Origin: Escherichia coli
Lineage (GTDB): Bacteria > Pseudomonadota > Gammaproteobacteria > Enterobacterales > Enterobacteriaceae
Length of the DNA stretch: 64,000 nt
Assembly: GCF_024700885.2 (NCBI RefSeq)
Contig: NZ_CP117016.1
Direction: 5' to 3' (one strand)
The position numbers were made by a program, and so were the translations under genes. Under the pieces are notes generated by a model. It saw nothing but the letters and a program-made list of their open reading frames with translations. It was not told where the DNA came from and searched no databases. Shown here piece after piece: positions 23,885 through 59,324 of the stretch (positions are counted from its first letter, which is position 1; each line of letters opens with the position of its first letter).

Positions 23885-24850
23885 TCAATGCAGGGAGTCT
23901 ATTATATTACACGTTTGGTCCGCGCCGCCGATCAGTAATGTCTGCGTCCGCACCCCATTCGCCGTCTGTTGGATACCGTTCACCAACTCGCCGCCCGTCA
24001 CGCCCGTAGCGCTAAAGAGGATATCGTTCCCCCTCACCAGTTCATCGAGCGAGTACACACGGTTAACGTCAACGCCCATTTCCTTGCAACGCTTGCGCTC
24101 CTGCTCTGCAATCTGCCGATTTTCCGTGTAATCCCCTTTAGCCTGACAAAAGTCAATCAGCTCGGCCTGCATATCCCCGCCTAATGCTTTAACGGCACAG
24201 GCAGAAATCACGCCCTCCGGCGCACCGCCGATGGTGTACATCACATCGTAAGGATTATCCTGCCAGCAGGTCAGCACGCTGGCGGCGACATCGCCATCCG
24301 GCAGGGCAAAAACCTTCACGCCCAGCTGTGTTGCTTCCTCAATTGCGGTACTCAGGCGCGGTTTATCCAGCGTAACCATGCGCAGTTTGTCCAGCGGTTT
24401 GCCTAACGCTTTCGCCACGTTTCGCAAGTTGTCCGCCAGAGGCAAAGACAGATCAATCGCCCCGGCAGCCTGTCGATTAACAACCAGCTTTTTCATATAC
24501 ATATCGGGCGCATGTAACAGGCTATCCCGAGGTGCGAAAGCCATGACCGCCAGCGCATTGCTCTGCCCCATCGCCACCATCCGGGTGCCTTCAATCGGGT
24601 CAACCGCGATATCGACTTCTGGCCCATCGCCTTTGCCCACCTCTTCGCCAATCCACAGCATCGGCGCATGGTCAATCTCTCCCTCGCCGATAACCACTCG
24701 CCCACGAAAAGCGACGTCGTTTAATGCCTGGCGCATCGCGGTGACCGCCAGGCCATCAATTTTATTTTTGTCGCCACATCCGGTTTGCGGCCAGGCAGCC
24801 AACGCTGCCTGTTCCGTAACGCGAAATAATGGCCACGCCAGGGACATCAT
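23885..24850 (-). CDS. yggF: fructose-1,6-bisphosphatase class II (GlpX paralogue)
   Basis: 321 aa GlpX-like. Confidence 0.9.
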   Translation of the reverse strand: MMSLAWPLFRVTEQAALAAWPQTGCGDKNKIDGLAVTAMRQALNDVAFRGRVVIGEGEIDHAPMLWIGEEVGKGDGPEVDIAVDPIEGTRMVAMGQSNALAVMAFAPRDSLLHAPDMYMKKLVVNRQAAGAIDLSLPLADNLRNVAKALGKPLDKLRMVTLDKPRLSTAIEEATQLGVKVFALPDGDVAASVLTCWQDNPYDVMYTIGGAPEGVISACAVKALGGDMQAELIDFCQAKGDYTENRQIAEQERKRCKEMGVDVNRVYSLDELVRGNDILFSATGVTGGELVNGIQQTANGVRTQTLLIGGADQTCNIIDSLH

Positions 24851-26124
24851 TGCGCGGCCTCCCCAATATCAACGCCAAATTGCGCCAGCAGATATTTCTC
24901 GGCCTGTTCATTCCAGATACCGTGCGTTTCCTCAACCAGCCGCGCCAGTTCTTTAAACAGCGGATCGGTTTTGCCTTTTTCGGCAAAATCGGCAATGGCA
25001 GTCAGCGGCATGGTCACGCCGTTATAAATGAGTTTTTTACCTCCGGGGATATCCGGCAGATTGAGCACGGTTTCTGGCACTGCATCCAGGCCACCGATAT
25101 GGGTCACCATAAACGACGGCTGTAACTGCCCCGTGGCGCTAAGCGCAATCGCCTCTTTCATGTCGTCCGTTGAACCGCCGGACGTACCGACGACATGCGT
25201 GCTGTTGTAATGGACGTTGTAGAAATTAAACGGCACTTTGAAGTTTTTATCCGTCGGCCCGGCAAAGAAGTTCAGGCAGCCATCTTCCGCCAGTAATTCA
25301 TCAGCCATCTCGACGACTGAAGGCACCGCTGCATAGACAAATACGTCATCAAATCCGGCATCATCCGTCAGCGCCCGCAGCGTCTGGACCGGATCGCTCA
25401 TCCCTTTGGTATTCACATACACCAGCTCAATGCCTTTACTGGCCGCCAGTTCCACCGGCAGCAGCTTTTGTACCTGCGCCAGGCGTTTGTCGTCGATATC
25501 GACCACCACCACCCGCGACGGTTGTATGCCGCCGTTAATAGCATAATCGATAGCGCCAATGCCCATCGGACCTGCACACGCCAGCAGCGCAATATTGCCG
25601 CCAGGTTTAACGCCCATGCGATGCTCATAAACATATTGCGTGGTGTGATAATTGGCATGATAAGCGCCAATAATGCAGCACATAGGCTCTGCCAGCGACG
25701 CCGCAGCAAAATAAGAGCCGTGGTACGGTAATACGCAGCCCAGGTTAATGGCGATCTCGGGAATAATCATATAGGTGGCGTTACCGCCAAAATATTCGTA
25801 GCTGTAGCCCGCTGAATATCCGCTTGGTAACCCCATCGCCGGTTGCAATACAAAACGCTGGCCTTTTTTATATTTGCCGGTGAGATTTTTACCCACTTCA
25901 ACAATAACCCCGGCACATTCATGCCCGGTAATGACCGGATGATTTTCTAAATCGTCGGGTACGCGTTTATGTTCACTACCGAGTAACGCCGCTTTCCAGG
26001 TCGATAAACAGACGCTGTCAGAAATTACACTCACTAACAGTTCATTATCGGTAATTTCTGGCAGTTCAAATTCGCGCAGACGGACATCCCGCTTGCCATA
26101 AATAGCAGCAACTTTGGTTTTCAT
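24847..26124 (-). CDS. yggP: zinc-type alcohol/polyol dehydrogenase-like protein
   Basis: 425 aa MDR-family dehydrogenase. Confidence 0.88.
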   Translation of the reverse strand: MKTKVAAIYGKRDVRLREFELPEITDNELLVSVISDSVCLSTWKAALLGSEHKRVPDDLENHPVITGHECAGVIVEVGKNLTGKYKKGQRFVLQPAMGLPSGYSAGYSYEYFGGNATYMIIPEIAINLGCVLPYHGSYFAAASLAEPMCCIIGAYHANYHTTQYVYEHRMGVKPGGNIALLACAGPMGIGAIDYAINGGIQPSRVVVVDIDDKRLAQVQKLLPVELAASKGIELVYVNTKGMSDPVQTLRALTDDAGFDDVFVYAAVPSVVEMADELLAEDGCLNFFAGPTDKNFKVPFNFYNVHYNSTHVVGTSGGSTDDMKEAIALSATGQLQPSFMVTHIGGLDAVPETVLNLPDIPGGKKLIYNGVTMPLTAIADFAEKGKTDPLFKELARLVEETHGIWNEQAEKYLLAQFGVDIGEAAQ

Positions 26125-26138
26125 TTTTACCTCGGCAA

Positions 26139-27527
26139 TCAGTTTTTATGTTCGGCGGTTAATTGATTAAATAAAGTGTCGAGTTTTGGATCGCCAATAT
26201 AGTTATTAATCAGTATCAGCGGTTTATCCGTCACACGTTTCACGCGCCCTTCCAGACTGGCATGAGTAACAACGATATCCGCATCCGCAGGCACGTTTTC
26301 TATCGCGTAATGTTTTACTTCAATTGCCAGCCCCGCTTTTTCCAGACGTTTACGGAAGGTGGTTGCGCCCATCGCGCTGGAGCCCATCCCCGCATCGCAA
26401 ACAAAGGCGATACGCTTAACCCTGCTTAACGAGAATGCACCCTCTTGTTTCATCGCCTTAACCGCATTGGCTGACTGAGCAAACTCATCTTCGCTCTCCG
26501 TTTCCACCGTTTTTTCCATCTTCAGTATCAGCGAAGTGATAGCAAAGGACACCAGGGTACCTACCGTAACACCGGCAATTGTCGCCAGGAACGAGCCTTT
26601 CGGCGTCAGTGCCAGGTAAGCAAAAATAGAGCCAGGGCTTGGGCCAGCCACCAAACCGCCATCAAGTAAGTTAAACATCCAGGTGCCAGACATACCGCCC
26701 GCAATCATGGCAATAATGGTCAGTGGCTTCATCAGCACATATGGGAAATACAGTTCGTGGATCCCACCGAGGAAGTGAATAATCATCGCGCCAGGCGCAG
26801 AACGCTTACTCATCCCTTTACCAAACAAGGTAAACGCCAGCAGCAGCCCCAGGCCAGGACCTGGATTAGAGGCCACCATAAAGAAGATGGATTTGCCGTT
26901 AACTGATGCCTGTTGCATTCCCAGCGGATAATAGACGCCCTGATCGATCGCATTATTAAGGAAAAGCACTTTCGCCGGTTCATTGATGACTGACAGCAAA
27001 GGCAGATAACCCGCATGTACCAGCGCCTCAATACACTCTTTGACGAAAGTATTGGCAATTAACACCGCCGGGCCGATCACTTCAAAACCCAGCAGACAAA
27101 GGAGCATCCCCGCGATACCTAATGAGAAGTTATTGATAACCATCTCAAAACCGGCAGGTATGCGTTTTTCCAGTGCCTTATCAACATATTTTATGACCAG
27201 ACCACCGAGCGGCCCCATAATCATTGAGCCAAGGAACATCGGGATCTCTGCGCCGACGATCACACCAATAGTACCAATTCCGCCCATGACCGCGCCGCGT
27301 TTACCGCCGACCAGATGACCACCGGTAGAACCAATCATCACGGGCAATAAATAGGTAATCATCGGGCCGACAATTTTGGCGAAATGTTCGTTAGGCAGCC
27401 AACCGGTGGGAATAAATAACGCAGTAATAAAACCCCAGGCAATAAAAGCACCAATATTGGGGATGACCATTGCCGTCAAAAAGCCCCCAAAAGCCTGGAC
27501 CTTTGCACGAGCAGACTTGTTTTCCAT
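26139..27527 (-). CDS. cmtA: PTS mannitol-type EIICB (cryptic)
   Basis: 462 aa EIIC membrane domain plus EIIB. Confidence 0.9.
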   Translation of the reverse strand: MENKSARAKVQAFGGFLTAMVIPNIGAFIAWGFITALFIPTGWLPNEHFAKIVGPMITYLLPVMIGSTGGHLVGGKRGAVMGGIGTIGVIVGAEIPMFLGSMIMGPLGGLVIKYVDKALEKRIPAGFEMVINNFSLGIAGMLLCLLGFEVIGPAVLIANTFVKECIEALVHAGYLPLLSVINEPAKVLFLNNAIDQGVYYPLGMQQASVNGKSIFFMVASNPGPGLGLLLAFTLFGKGMSKRSAPGAMIIHFLGGIHELYFPYVLMKPLTIIAMIAGGMSGTWMFNLLDGGLVAGPSPGSIFAYLALTPKGSFLATIAGVTVGTLVSFAITSLILKMEKTVETESEDEFAQSANAVKAMKQEGAFSLSRVKRIAFVCDAGMGSSAMGATTFRKRLEKAGLAIEVKHYAIENVPADADIVVTHASLEGRVKRVTDKPLILINNYIGDPKLDTLFNQLTAEHKN

Positions 27528-27554
27528 AATATTATCCTGTAGAGGAGAGAGTAA

Positions 27555-27998
27555 TTATCCGCGGCTGATTATGTCCGCTAATTGTTTTTCTGATGCTGCT
27601 GTTAATAATTGGTTGAGTATTTCTTCTTCACACAATAATTCACTTAACGCCTGAATAGCGCCAATGTGCGAATCGGCATCGGCAGCAGAAAGGCCGATGA
27701 GTAATTTTATCGGTTCGTCATTCCCCGGAAAATAAACACCTTGTTTAAGTAACGTTAAAGACATCCCGGTTTTAAGCGCCCCACATTCCGGTCGAGCATG
27801 AGGCATTGCCACGCCTGGTGCGAGAATATAATAAGGACCATTGCTGATGGTGGAGTCTTTAATAGACTGAATGTAATTCTCGCTGATATAGTTTTTATCC
27901 AGCAATGATGCCATCGAGAAATCGATAGCTTCCTGCCAGTCTTTTGCTGAATGTATAACTGAAATTGATAATTCTGGAAAATAATTAATAAGCCGCAT
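27555..27998 (-). CDS. cmtB: PTS mannitol-type EIIA (cryptic)
   Basis: 147 aa EIIA. Confidence 0.9.
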   Translation of the reverse strand: MRLINYFPELSISVIHSAKDWQEAIDFSMASLLDKNYISENYIQSIKDSTISNGPYYILAPGVAMPHARPECGALKTGMSLTLLKQGVYFPGNDEPIKLLIGLSAADADSHIGAIQALSELLCEEEILNQLLTAASEKQLADIISRG

Positions 27999-28374
27999 AA
28001 ATTATCCTTATTTTATTTTTAGGGTGCCGTCCGGCGGTAAAAATAAAATACTCGTGCAGTTTAATGAAAGCAATTGGGTACGCGAGAAGAAAAAACCCAT
28101 GAGCCAAAATAATAAAACTTTAAATAACAACAACATGAAATCAATAATTACAAAGTCAACTTTGTATTTGTTATGTTTATCACAAAATCAACACTTTGTT
28201 TGTTGTTGTATTTGTGATGCATATCGCCATTTATTTATTGAATGTTCGAAAACATATTTTTTTAATGCAATGTTTTTTCGCTATACCCCTTTATAGATTC
28301 TGAATTCTCACCTGTCGGCTATTTTATCCTCACCTCATGTGACATATTCCCCACTTTACTCAAGGAAGATTCAT

Positions 28375-29283
28375 ATGAAAGCACCTGTTTCAATAACCTC
28401 ATTTCGCCCACAAAAATCTATTGCTATCGTCATTGGCGTGCTTGCCGTGGTTGTGCTGCCATTTCTCTCGTATTACACCGTTAATGAAGGTGAACGCGGC
28501 ATTTTGCTGCGCTACGGAAAAATCGTAAAAGTTGCCGAGCCGGGTCTGGGTTTTAAGATCCCTTTTATGGAAAGCGTGGAGAAAATTTCCACGCGTAATC
28601 AGGCTGTGGTTTATCAGGGATTACAGGCCTACAGCCGCGACCAGCAACCGGCACAAATGACAGTATCAGTCAGCTTCCACATTAAACCTTCAGAAGCTGG
28701 CGCAGTTTATACAACCTACAACACCATTGAATCTTTAAAAGAGCGTCTGATCGTCCGCCAGCTGCCAACCCAACTGGAGAACGTTTTCGGGCAATATACC
28801 GCCATTAGCGCGGTACAAGATCGTACGAAACTGGTGCAGGATCTGCAAAACGCGATGCGTAAAGCCGTTGTTGGCCCGGTGGTGATTGATGGTGTTCAGA
28901 TTGAAAATATTGATTTTTCTGACGCTTATGAAAAATCGATTGAAGATCGAATGAAAGCAGAAGTCGCCATTGCCACACGTAAGCAAAATCTGGAAACAGA
29001 GAAAATCCAGGCGCAAATAGCGGTAACTCAGGCCCAGGCAGAAGCAGACAGTAAACTGGCGGCAGCCAAAGCAGAAGCTGAGACTATTCGCGTAAGAGGC
29101 GCGGCAGAGGCTGAAACTATTCGTTTAAAAAGTGCGGCTGAAGCAGAAGCAATCCGCCTGCGCGGTGAAGCTCTGCGGGATAATCCCGGACTTGTAGCCC
29201 TTACCACTGCAGAGCGTTGGGACGGTAAACTGCCCGATACCATGATCCCCGGCAGTACAGTTCCGTTTATCTCTACTAAGTAA
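28375..29283 (+). CDS. SPFH/band-7 (prohibitin/HflC-like) membrane protein
   Basis: ORF 28339..29283; probable start MKAPVSITS at 28375 (AAGGAAG SD); N-terminal TM then SPFH domain; C-terminal 11-aa repeats AEAETIRVRGA x3. Confidence 0.75.
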   Translation: MKAPVSITSFRPQKSIAIVIGVLAVVVLPFLSYYTVNEGERGILLRYGKIVKVAEPGLGFKIPFMESVEKISTRNQAVVYQGLQAYSRDQQPAQMTVSVSFHIKPSEAGAVYTTYNTIESLKERLIVRQLPTQLENVFGQYTAISAVQDRTKLVQDLQNAMRKAVVGPVVIDGVQIENIDFSDAYEKSIEDRMKAEVAIATRKQNLETEKIQAQIAVTQAQAEADSKLAAAKAEAETIRVRGAAEAETIRLKSAAEAEAIRLRGEALRDNPGLVALTTAERWDGKLPDTMIPGSTVPFISTK

Positions 29284-29288
29284 AAAAA

Positions 29289-29654
<366 letters not shown>

Positions 29655-29676
29655 TTCTCACAAAGCATCTTACCGA

Positions 29677-31668
29677 TTACAGCAGTTCTTTTGCTTTCGC
29701 AACAACGTTGTCAACGGTGAAGCCGAACTCTTCAAACAGCAGCTCTGCCGGAGCAGATTCACCAAAGGTGGTCATGCCGACGATAGCACCGTTCAGGCCA
29801 ACATACTTGTACCAGTAGTCAGCAATGCCAGCTTCCACCGCAACGCGTGCAGTAACCGCTTTCGGCAGTACAGACTCACGGTAAGCCGCATCCTGCTTGT
29901 CGAATGCGTCAGTAGACGGCATGGAAACCACGCGCGCTTTCACGCCTTCGGCAGTCAGTTTTTCGTAGGCAGCAACCGCCAGTTCAACTTCAGAACCGGT
30001 CGCGATGAAAATCAGTTCCGGCTGACCGGCACAGTCTTTCAGCACATAACCACCGCGCGCGATGTTTGCCAGCTGCTCTTCAGTACGTTCCTGCTGCGCC
30101 AGGTTCTGACGGGAGAGGATAAGCGCAGTTGGGCCGTCCTGACGCTCAACGCCGTATTTCCACGCGACCGCGGATTCAACCTGGTCACATGGACGCCATG
30201 TGGACATGTTCGGGGTCACGCGCAGAGAAGCCACCTGCTCAACCGGCTGGTGAGTCGGGCCATCTTCGCCCAGACCGATGGAGTCGTGGGTGTAAACCAT
30301 CACCTGACGCTGTTTCATCAGCGCAGCCATACGTACGGCGTTACGTGCGTATTCCACGAACATCAGGAAGGTGGAGGTGTACGGCAGGAAACCACCGTGC
30401 AGGGAGATACCGTTAGCAATCGCGGTCATACCGAACTCGCGAACACCGTAGTGGATGTAGTTACCCGCAGCATCTTCGTTGATTGCTTTAGAACCAGACC
30501 ACAGGGTCAGGTTAGACGGTGCCAGGTCAGCAGAGCCGCCGAGGAATTCCGGCAACAGCGGACCGAAAGCTTCAATCGCATTCTGAGACGCTTTACGGCT
30601 GGCGATTTTCGCCGGATTAGCCTGCAGTTTAGCGATGAACTCTTTCGCTTTGGCGTCGAAGTCAGACGGCATTTCGCCTTTCATACGGCGGGTAAATTCA
30701 GCGGCTTCCTGCGGATAAGCTTTCGCGTAAGCAGCGAATTTCTCGTTCCATGCGGATTCTTTCGCCTGGCCTGCTTCTTTCGCATCCCACTGAGCATAGA
30801 TTTCAGACGGGATTTCGAACGGTGCATATTTCCAGCCCAGCTGTTCGCGGGTCAGGGCGATTTCAGCGTCGCCCAGCGGCGCACCGTGGGAGTCGTGCGT
30901 ACCGGCTTTGTTCGGTGAACCGAAACCGATGATGGTTTTGCACATCAGCAGGGACGGTTTGTCAGTCACTGCGCGCGCTTCTTCTACTGCGCGTTTGATG
31001 GATGCCGCGTCATGACCGTCGATGCCGCGAATAACGTGCCAGCCGTAGGCTTCGAAACGCATTGCGGTGTCGTCGGTGAACCAGCCTTCAACGTGACCAT
31101 CGATAGAGATACCGTTGTCATCGTAGAACGCAATCAGTTTACCCAGCTTCAGCGTACCCGCCAGAGAACAAACTTCGTGGGAGATGCCTTCCATCATGCA
31201 GCCGTCGCCCATGAAGGCGTAGGTGTAGTGGTCGACGATGTCGTGGCCCGGACGGTTAAACTGCGCCGCCAGCGTTTTTTCTGCAATCGCCATACCGACT
31301 GCGTTGGCAATACCCTGACCCAGCGGACCTGTAGTGGTTTCCACGCCAGCGGTGTAACCCACTTCCGGGTGGCCCGGAGTTTTAGAGTGCAGCTGACGGA
31401 AGTTTTTCAGTTCTTCCATCGGCAGATCGTAACCGGTGAGGTGCAGCAGGCTGTAGATCAGCATGGAGCCGTGGCCGTTGGACAGCACGAAGCGGTCACG
31501 GTCAGCCCAGGACGGATTCTGCGGGTTGTGTTTCAGGAAATCACGCCACAGGACTTCGGCAATGTCAGCCATACCCATAGGGGCACCCGGGTGACCGGAT
31601 TTGGCTTTCTGTACTGCGTCCATGCTCAGCGCACGAATAGCATTGGCAAGCTCTTTACGTGAGGACAT
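29677..31668 (-). CDS. tktA: transketolase 1
   Basis: ORF 29677..31698; start at [22 protein letters not shown]; 663 aa. Confidence 0.95.
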
Positions 31669-47966: not shown

Positions 47967-49095
47967 ATTACCGCCGCTGAGTCTCTACATTCACATCCCG
48001 TGGTGCGTGCAGAAATGCCCGTACTGCGATTTCAACTCTCACGCGTTGAAAGGAGAAGTGCCGCACGACGATTATGTTCAGCATCTGCTTAACGATCTGG
48101 ACAACGATGTGGCTTACGCTCAGGGCCGTGAAGTGCAGACAATCTTTATTGGCGGTGGTACGCCGAGCCTGCTTTCCGGCGCGGCGATGCAAATGCTGCT
48201 GGACGGCGTACGTGCGCGTTTGCCGCTGGCAGCGGATGCAGAGATTACTATGGAAGCGAACCCTGGTACGGTTGAAGCCGATCGCTTTGTCGATTATCAG
48301 CGTGCTGGTGTGAACCGCATCTCTATTGGTGTGCAGAGTTTTAGCGAAGAAAAGCTGAAACGACTTGGGCGCATTCATGGCCCGCAAGAAGCGAAACGAG
48401 CGGCAAAACTTGCAAGCGGGCTGGGGCTGCGTAGTTTTAACCTTGATTTGATGCATGGGCTGCCGGATCAATCACTGGAAGAGGCGCTTGGCGATCTGCG
48501 CCAGGCCATTGAACTGAATCCGCCGCATCTTTCCTGGTATCAACTGACCATCGAACCTAATACGCTGTTTGGCTCGCGCTCTCCTGTACTGCCGGACGAT
48601 GACGCGCTGTGGGATATTTTCGAACAGGGGCATCAGTTATTAACCGCAGCGGGCTATCAGCAGTATGAAACATCCGCTTACGCCAAACCAGGTTATCAGT
48701 GCCAGCACAATCTCAACTACTGGCGATTTGGCGACTACATCGGTATTGGCTGCGGCGCGCACGGCAAAGTGACCTTCCCGGATGGGCGCATTCTGCGTAC
48801 CACCAAAACGCGTCATCCGCGTGGTTTTATGCAAGGAAGGTATCTGGAAAGCCAGCGTGATGTCGAAGCCGCAGATAAGCCGTTTGAGTTCTTTATGAAT
48901 CGCTTCCGTCTGCTGGAAGCCGCGCCGCGCGTGGAGTTTAGCCAGTATACTGGCCTTTCTGAAGAAGTTATTCGCTCTCAGTTAGACGAGGCCATCGCTC
49001 AGGGTTATCTCACAGAATGTGCGGATTACTGGCAGATAACGGAACATGGTAAATTATTCTTAAACTCACTTCTTGAATTATTCCTCGCTGAGTAA
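47959..49095 (+). CDS. hemW: radical SAM heme chaperone HemW (YggW)
   Basis: 378 aa, CxxxCxxC ([10 protein letters not shown]); overlaps rdgB stop. Confidence 0.92.
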
Positions 49096-59123: not shown

Positions 59124-59324
59124 TTCCACTAACCGCCCCTGACGATGCTCAGGGGCAAAAATGTTATCCACATCACAATTTCGTTTTGCAAATTGGGAAT
59201 GTTTGCAATTATTTGCCACAGGTAACAAAAAACCAGTCCGCGAAGTTGATAGAATCCCATCATCTCGCACAGTCAAATGTGCTTTTTCAAACACTCATCC
59301 GCATCACGATGTGAGGAAATTAAC

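Follow-up and report, generated by a model that had tools for sequence, protein, structure and literature searches.

The 376-bp gap between cmtB and the neighbouring SPFH gene of this Escherichia coli strain (GCF_024700885.2, NZ_CP117016.1) is likely to be a composite bidirectional control region, made up of an ancestral CRP-controlled part that belongs to cmtB and of a second part that carries the promoter of the SPFH gene. The gap is an ordinary two-way promoter region, and its core is the previously described cAMP-CRP-activated control region of cmtBA. In it, this old control region of cmtB meets an accessory cassette with the SPFH gene, present in about 29% of the complete E. coli genomes. 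For the K-12-type allele, cAMP-CRP as the regulator and one of its sites are already published. Modest additions of the present work are a second conserved CRP site at a fixed 44-bp spacing, as in mtlA, a conserved promoter-like block with a palindrome adjoining the Shine-Dalgarno sequence (SD), the recognition that the gap is of composite origin, and a candidate promoter for the SPFH gene. The significance is mainly one of annotation: a CRP-controlled, vertically inherited promoter instead of a foreign island of the H-NS type, and no small gene.

Locus and composite origin of the gap

Within the window, which is the whole stretch of 64,000 nucleotides analysed, the gap and its flanking genes are the following.

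27555 to 27998, minus strand: cmtB, PTS mannitol-type EIIA, which opens the cmtBA-yggPFDC operon (NCBIfam equivalog PRK09854 at 317.5 bits)
27999 to 28374, no strand: AT-rich divergent intergenic region, 376 bp, 31.4% GC
28375 to 29283, plus strand: SPFH/Band_7 gene ("prohibitin family"; Pfam PF01145 Band_7, 3.5e-30), accessory in E. coli

The start codon of cmtB occupies 27998-27996 on the minus strand and the ATG of the SPFH gene begins at 28375, and the gap between the start codons is thus exactly 27999-28374, with the two genes heading in opposite directions. Its GC content of 31.4% compares to 50.8% for the window, in which equally low 376-bp windows make up 0.27% of the 64 kb, and it contains twelve A or T runs of at least four bases. 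An earlier sequence-only reading had described a 376-bp AT-rich region with oligo-A and oligo-T tracts between divergent genes, and this description is accurate. A second low-GC stretch of the window (about 33%) starts near 49001.

The gap is 100% identical to that of E. coli strain MLI114, where the RefSeq order of genes is yggP, cmtA and cmtB (minus strand), a "prohibitin family protein" (plus strand) and tkt (minus strand). An Rfam scan of 27000-30000 (E up to 1) gave no family within 27999-28374, and a terminator scan found none inside the gap. A simple sigma-70 consensus scan of the gap detected two promoter-like sites versus 3.1 expected from shuffled sequences, and at this level promoters cannot be read here from consensus matching alone. 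That the gap holds promoters for both genes, as the same reading had supposed, is very probable: the K-12 gap drives CRP-dependent lacZ expression (Shimada 2011, PMC3105977), and promoter-like blocks are conserved on both sides.

By comparison with other genomes the gap can be divided into two segments.

27999 to 28253, minus strand: ancestral cmtB control region, collinear with the K-12 cmtB-tktA gap, near-identical up to 28076 and about 60% identical beyond
28254 to 28374, plus strand: SPFH-specific segment (putative SPFH promoter and 5' UTR), absent from K-12-type genomes

The first 78 bases of the gap (27999-28076) are matched in 4874 of 5426 complete E. coli genomes; the whole gap, used here as a proxy for the SPFH-type locus, is present in 1564 of the 5426 (about 29%). 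In K-12-type genomes tktA follows directly beyond cmtB, at a spacing of 313 bp, and the megablast match to these genomes is limited to bases 1-78. By gapped local alignment, the K-12 gap also matches 28107-28253 in a collinear and nearly gap-free manner, with a score of 26 (dinucleotide shuffles 12.1 +/- 1.9, 0 of 500 reaching 26), and homology stops near 28253. Identity between this strain and K-12 amounts to 97% in cmtA, 97% in tktA and about 94% in cmtB, as compared to about 60% in the gap beyond base 78. The alignments indicate that 27999-28253 is one old region existing in two deeply diverged forms, to which 28254-28374 and the SPFH gene are extra.

Across 26139-29283 the alleles of E. 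coli have diverged to an unusual extent, with identities of 93-95% for cmtB, 95-98% for cmtA and 95-97% for the SPFH gene. The central gap is 73-94% identical among E. coli alleles and about 60% identical to K-12, and tktA is 97% identical to K-12.

Outside E. coli, the ancestral region aligns with the cmtB upstream regions, adjoining tktA, of about 12 enterobacterial genera. From about 28286 on, the SPFH-specific part can be aligned with the DNA that precedes the SPFH gene in Kluyvera, Klebsiella spallanzanii and the locus L092, and in Kluyvera and Klebsiella the SPFH gene adjoins tktA and the cmt genes are absent. Since the SPFH unit and the tktA-cmtB unit occur apart in other genera, the gap joins two units of different history. 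In Kluyvera intermedia, Klebsiella spallanzanii and a metagenome contig, which have no cmt genes there, the SPFH gene is flanked by epd and tktA, while close homologs between cmtB and tktA are found in E. albertii and another Escherichia. Genomes of the epd-SPFH-tktA type (Kluyvera, L092) have an orthologous junction, which runs from the SPFH stop through the bidirectional terminator GGGCCGCTTTCGCGGCCC to the stop of tktA. The tktA terminator of K-12 is a different one, common to Citrobacter, Salmonella and Raoultella. The simpler history of an ancestral SPFH gene deleted in K-12 was rejected, because most of the cmt-carrying genera have tktA-cmtB without the SPFH gene and K-12 shares their tktA terminator.

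Between the SPFH stop and tktA (29290-29660) two BIME/REP units are found, which triplicate the terminator hairpin GGGCCGCTTTCGCGGCCC; other SPFH-type strains have zero REP units (45-bp spacer) or one. As its sole hits in the scan of 27000-30000, Rfam reports the REP-derived ES036 twice above its gathering score in 29302-29659, and naRNA4 below it. SPFH homologs with about 70% identity are present inside conjugative-transfer clusters (L093 2501-3391; L094 2501-3403), so this family travels on mobile elements too. A homolog in Kosakonia lies between TrbI and TraV, and one in Klebsiella oxytoca adjoins an Rrf2-family regulator.

CRP sites upstream of cmtB and the question of H-NS

Two CRP sites are predicted in the ancestral part of the gap.

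28169 to 28184, no strand: CRP site A, TGTTATGTTTATCACA, 15.0 bits, rank 3 in the 64-kb window
28213 to 28228, no strand: CRP site B, TGTGATGCATATCGCC, 12.9 bits, rank 4 in the 64-kb window

The position weight matrix used was built from the 96 other ChIP-seq sites in the table of PMC4287617, the cmtB site being left out, and the median score of real ChIP sites with this matrix is 13.2 bits. Sites A and B both conform to the CRP consensus TGTGA-N6-TCACA. The match ranking second in the window is identical in sequence to the galP site listed in the same table (PMC4287617). Site A is centred 178.5 nt from the cmtB ATG, and site B 222.5 nt from the cmtB ATG and 154.5 nt from the SPFH ATG; from centre to centre the two sites are 44 bp apart. 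The best match of the whole window, TGTTATCCACATCACA with 16.7 bits, is found at 59162-59177.

The TGTGA motifs are kept in all aligned alleles. The K-12 sites score 12.8 and 13.6 bits and have offsets of 171 and 215 nt from the ATG, the same as here, and in other E. coli alleles and in E. albertii the sites lie at unchanged or almost unchanged distances from the ATG of cmtB within surrounding DNA that is 60-94% identical. Site A is degraded in the alleles GN06667, SK0189 and L010, and in L012 both sites score just 8.1 bits, which shows that the full arrangement is not kept in every allele.

Conservation beyond the species was evaluated in 44 cmtB loci, one genome per species, from several enterobacterial genera. 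A pair with a spacing of exactly 44 bp and a score of 9 bits or higher for both sites is present in 23 of these loci, and in 29 if the threshold is set to at least 7 bits, the two sites lying about 157-186 and 201-230 nt away from the ATG of cmtB. Shuffling (20 x 44 sequences) produced no such pair, and no spacing of CRP sites other than 44 bp recurs among the 44 loci. The genera carrying the pair include Escherichia, Citrobacter, Silvania, Raoultella, Lelliottia, Buttiauxella and Superficieibacter, and it is also found in Salmonella arizonae and diarizonae.

Experimental data exist for the K-12 and ETEC form of the region. In the CRP ChIP-seq of ETEC H10407 a cmtB peak lies over TGTGATCTACAACACG, 16-fold above threshold, and is among the five highest values in the available portion of the supplementary table (PMC4287617). 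The H10407 site is the same in sequence as that of K-12, and site B is the positional homolog of this TGTGATCTACAACACG. Genomic SELEX in K-12 lists TGTGATCTACAACACG as a CRP site for "cmtBA-yggPFDC", and the activity of a lacZ fusion of the whole K-12 gap, the primers of which extend from within tktA up to the base that precedes the cmtB ATG, drops in a crp mutant (Shimada 2011, PMC3105977). CRP binding and activation are thus measured on the K-12/ETEC-type allele and predicted for the allele of this strain.

The cmt operon is regarded as cryptic. Silencing by H-NS would explain this: filaments would nucleate on the AT-rich gap with its A-tracts and keep cmtBA as well as the SPFH gene silent, and CRP would be at most a counter-silencer. 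The 31% GC and the many A and T runs are consistent with such a model, and H-NS binding follows low GC genome-wide in ETEC (PMC4287617). We consider it somewhat unlikely. The gap has no match to the high-affinity H-NS motif TCGATAAATT with up to one mismatch, and a literature search for H-NS or start sites at cmt found CRP data alone and no paper reporting H-NS there. The ChIP-seq peak (PMC4287617) and the CRP-dependent reporter activity (PMC3105977) described above imply that the K-12-type region is not fully occluded.

The sequence-only reading had also called the region typical of acquired genes. This is contradicted by the conservation of the cmtB-proximal 255 bp, together with their low GC, in about a dozen enterobacterial genera. 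GC upstream of cmtB is 28-40% in every genus examined, and is thus a stable and old property of this promoter and not the mark of a recent acquisition. The AT-rich upstream region has been inherited vertically beside tktA and has no foreign-DNA signature; the SPFH segment alone is accessory, and it is itself syntenic with tktA in other genera. The H-NS model is compatible with the CRP model and does not exclude it, but the regulator demonstrated for the K-12-type allele is cAMP-CRP, not H-NS.

What the literature search found on yggP and cmtA was a sigma-54 site of intragenic location and a list of genes from an acid-resistance study, neither of which bears on the gap. The former is the site CTGGCGGCAATATTGCA found by sigma-54 ChIP in K-12 within yggP, upstream of yggF (PMC4591121). 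In the window yggP is located at 24847-26124.

Promoter-like blocks, palindromes and small reading frames

Between the CRP sites and cmtB the following elements are found.

28136 to 28137, minus strand: pyrimidine-A step, invariant, candidate class II CRP-dependent start, 40.5 bp downstream of the centre of site A
28045 to 28073, minus strand: candidate proximal sigma-70 promoter of cmtB, -35 TTGCTT (28073 to 28068), 17 nt, -10 TATTTT (28050 to 28045)
28009 to 28050, no strand: interrupted palindrome TATTTTATTTTTA-N16-TAAAAATAAAATA, a perfect 13-nt inverted repeat with arms at 28009-28021 and 28038-28050
28004 to 28009, minus strand: Shine-Dalgarno sequence AAGGAT of cmtB, its AAGGA conserved in the alignment described below

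An alignment of 28 cmtB upstream sequences (A4), read in the cmtB sense, shows as invariant outside the CRP boxes a TTG at 28159-28157, the A at 28136 after a pyrimidine, and a TG at 28129-28128. Also invariant are TTG(C/A)TTT at 28073-28067 and four single bases, T28050, A28049, T28047 and T28045. These two groups correspond to the candidate proximal promoter, in which the TTG of the -35 and the T(-12), A(-11), T(-9) and T(-7) of the -10, with -12, -11 and -7 as the critical positions, are invariant in the 28 sequences and the 17-nt spacer is constant in length and variable in sequence. TTGCTT/TATTTT is by this alignment the best conserved sigma-70-like pair, and would give a start near A28038; both hexamers are weak, with three to four of the six consensus bases.

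An alternative start around 28135 is suggested by the pyrimidine-A step and by analogy with mtlA. The two start models for cmtB conflict. A start near 28135 would place the proximal promoter block within the leader, where its conservation needs another reason, and a start near 28038 would give the CRP sites positions of about -138 and -182, a distance that exceeds the range of standard class I or class II activation.

Indels of about one helical turn are seen between the CRP module and the downstream blocks (A4 columns 122-142, about 28138-28150), namely +11 bp in Buttiauxella and about -10 bp in Superficieibacter and UBA5654. Their size suggests that helical phase may matter.

The palindrome includes the -10 hexamer inside its left arm and abuts the SD of cmtB. 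Its arms are near-invariant across genera; in the 16-nt spacer about 10 nt beside the distal arm vary, and the GTACCC beside the SD-proximal arm is conserved. An intrinsic terminator or attenuator was rejected, because on both strands a T-run precedes the hairpin and an A-run follows it.

The palindrome might instead act as RNA, as a hairpin of the cmtB mRNA leader upstream of the SD which controls stability or translation, and a CRP-proximal start would indeed put both arms in the transcript. The predicted hairpin has -11.4 kcal/mol (z -2.0), on the cmtB-sense strand several of the arm changes leave a G-U pair, and in three cells both sides have changed. Such a covariation is weak, as these three double-change cells are equalled or exceeded in 22 of 500 shuffles and most pairs never vary, and E. 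albertii, Raoultella and C. koseri have one-arm deletions without compensation. RNAalifold on 25 leaders gave no consensus structure and the palindrome has no Rfam match. The hairpin also leaves the SD uncovered and is not followed by a U-tract, which makes it neither a terminator nor an obvious translational switch. A function as leader RNA is therefore judged quite improbable. A role as DNA, in the form of a promoter with an overlapping operator, is favoured, because the evidence for an RNA hairpin is weak and the order of T-run, hairpin and A-run is that of a reversed terminator.

It is more speculative, and in our estimate rather unlikely, that the palindrome is the operator of a repressor, possibly involving YggD, which keeps cmt "cryptic" despite strong CRP binding. 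YggD (annotated FumE) is an MtlR-family protein. In the Shimada table yggD belongs to the same operon (PMC3105977). The discovery of such a repressor would tell what induces the Cmt PTS system and what its physiological substrate is.

On the SPFH side three elements can be recognised.

28297 to 28305, no strand: small palindrome ATTCTGAAT upstream of the SPFH gene, putative factor site or promoter element
28340 to 28348, plus strand: extended -10-like TGaCATATT, about 20 nt upstream of the SD, putative SPFH start near 28353-28355
28362 to 28368, plus strand: Shine-Dalgarno sequence AAGGAAG of the SPFH gene, conserved among SPFH loci

Six SPFH loci of four lineages were compared. The pattern TGnCATnnT is invariant in all six, at a constant distance to the SD, and ATTC(T/C)GAATT at 28297-28305 is kept in five. 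TGaCATATT carries the fixed positions of an extended -10, and a start of the SPFH transcript about 20 nt before the ATG may be proposed from this pattern. Sites for sigma-E, sigma-32, sigma-54, sigma-28 and sigma-S were looked for by eye, by comparison to their consensus sequences, and none fits or is conserved. The 5' region of the SPFH gene folds no better than shuffled sequences (z -0.01).

The epd promoter of the window (19347-19435) contains an exact match to the Kluyvera/Klebsiella Cra box CTGAAACGCTTCAGC together with a CRP-like sequence TCTGACTTACGTCACG, and this pair is also found in the epd-SPFH gap of Kluyvera and Klebsiella spallanzanii. The CRP-like site in the epd-SPFH gap of Kluyvera and Klebsiella was considered as an ortholog of site B and rejected, since it belongs to the epd promoter.

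The remaining feature is a reading frame.

28024 to 28296, plus strand: 90-codon ORF, spurious, with GTG start and an N- and K-rich low-complexity sequence

It is extremely improbable that the gap encodes a small protein, be it by this ORF or by a hydrophobic 42-codon ORF running from 28136 to 28008 on the minus strand. Both frames are open in this allele, which was aligned with five other E. coli alleles (80-96% identical) and with K-12. The 90-codon ORF has an in-frame stop at codon 40 in GN06667, SK0189 and L010 and is interrupted by numerous stops in the allele of K-12, and its substitutions are distributed evenly over codon positions 3, 2 and 1 (19, 21 and 24 versus GN06667; 21, 21 and 24 versus SK0189). 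Because of these stops and flat counts the ORF, which the sequence-only reading had rightly held to be spurious and of low complexity, is by comparison of alleles a chance frame in AT-rich DNA and no gene. All six E. coli SPFH-type alleles compared keep the 42-codon frame open, but in that of strain 405 its ATG is lost, and K-12 does not have the frame. About one quarter of its residues change between alleles that are just 10-20% apart in DNA, and it overlaps the conserved promoter blocks. This frame is no gene either.

Model of the region and comparison with known systems

In the model we propose, sites A and B would activate leftward transcription of cmtBA-yggPFDC when glucose is absent. By analogy with mtlA, site A would be near -41 and site B near -85 of a start at about 28135, with a leader of about 137 nt, which would correspond to a class II site plus an upstream CRP site (class II/III geometry). 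The second block could be a weak sigma-70 promoter with a start near 28038, embedded in the 13-bp palindrome that abuts the SD, and a hypothetical repressor acting at this block of promoter and palindrome might keep the operon "cryptic". The right part of about 120 bp would serve the SPFH gene by means of the extended -10-like TGaCATATT, with the palindrome ATTCTGAAT about 50 bp further upstream. This right segment, the SPFH gene and the bidirectional terminator form one unit, located beside tktA in Kluyvera and Klebsiella and missing in K-12-type E. coli. What we infer in this model are the starts of transcription, the class II/III geometry of the CRP sites, the existence of the repressor and the promoter of the SPFH gene. 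The CRP pair with its 44-bp spacing, the SD-adjoining palindrome and the elements upstream of the SPFH gene offer handles on the function of the "cryptic" cmt operon.

The system nearest to the one described here is the cmtBA-yggPFDC promoter of K-12 and ETEC H10407 (Shimada 2011; Haycocks 2015), where the locus and the adjoining cmtB are those described here. The available parts of the two reports (PMC3105977, PMC4287617) mention neither the second CRP site nor the palindrome nor the conserved hexamers. The first 78 bp are near-identical to this allele and the CRP offsets (171 and 215 nt) are identical, whereas site B reads TGTGATCTACAACACG there and TGTGATGCATATCGCC here, and beyond base 78 the alleles are about 60% identical. 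At the right end, this allele has the SPFH gene with its putative promoter where K-12 has the tktA terminator.

Like cmt, the bgl operon encodes a PTS for a sugar, counts as "cryptic" and is preceded by an AT-rich region that also has CRP sites. For bgl, silencing by H-NS and activation by mutation are experimentally shown, whereas the literature search yielded no H-NS silencing data for cmt. A further difference from bgl is the conservation of the AT-rich region of cmt across genera.

The mtlADR operon of E. coli is paralogous to the cmt operon, both comprising a PTS mannitol-type transporter, a dehydrogenase and an MtlR-family protein. There are differences between the two control regions: mtlA has at least four CRP sites versus two at cmtB, sequence similarity is confined to the CRP boxes, the mtl gap lacks a marked AT-richness near the ATG, and the 13-bp palindrome of cmtB is absent from the mtlA control region. 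The two distal CRP sites in the K-12 mtlA-yibI gap (L091 26451-26986) are 43 bp apart. Both mtlA and cmtB are strong CRP ChIP-seq peaks (PMC4287617), and the two ATG-proximal CRP sites of K-12 mtlA are exactly 44 bp apart, like the pair upstream of cmtB.
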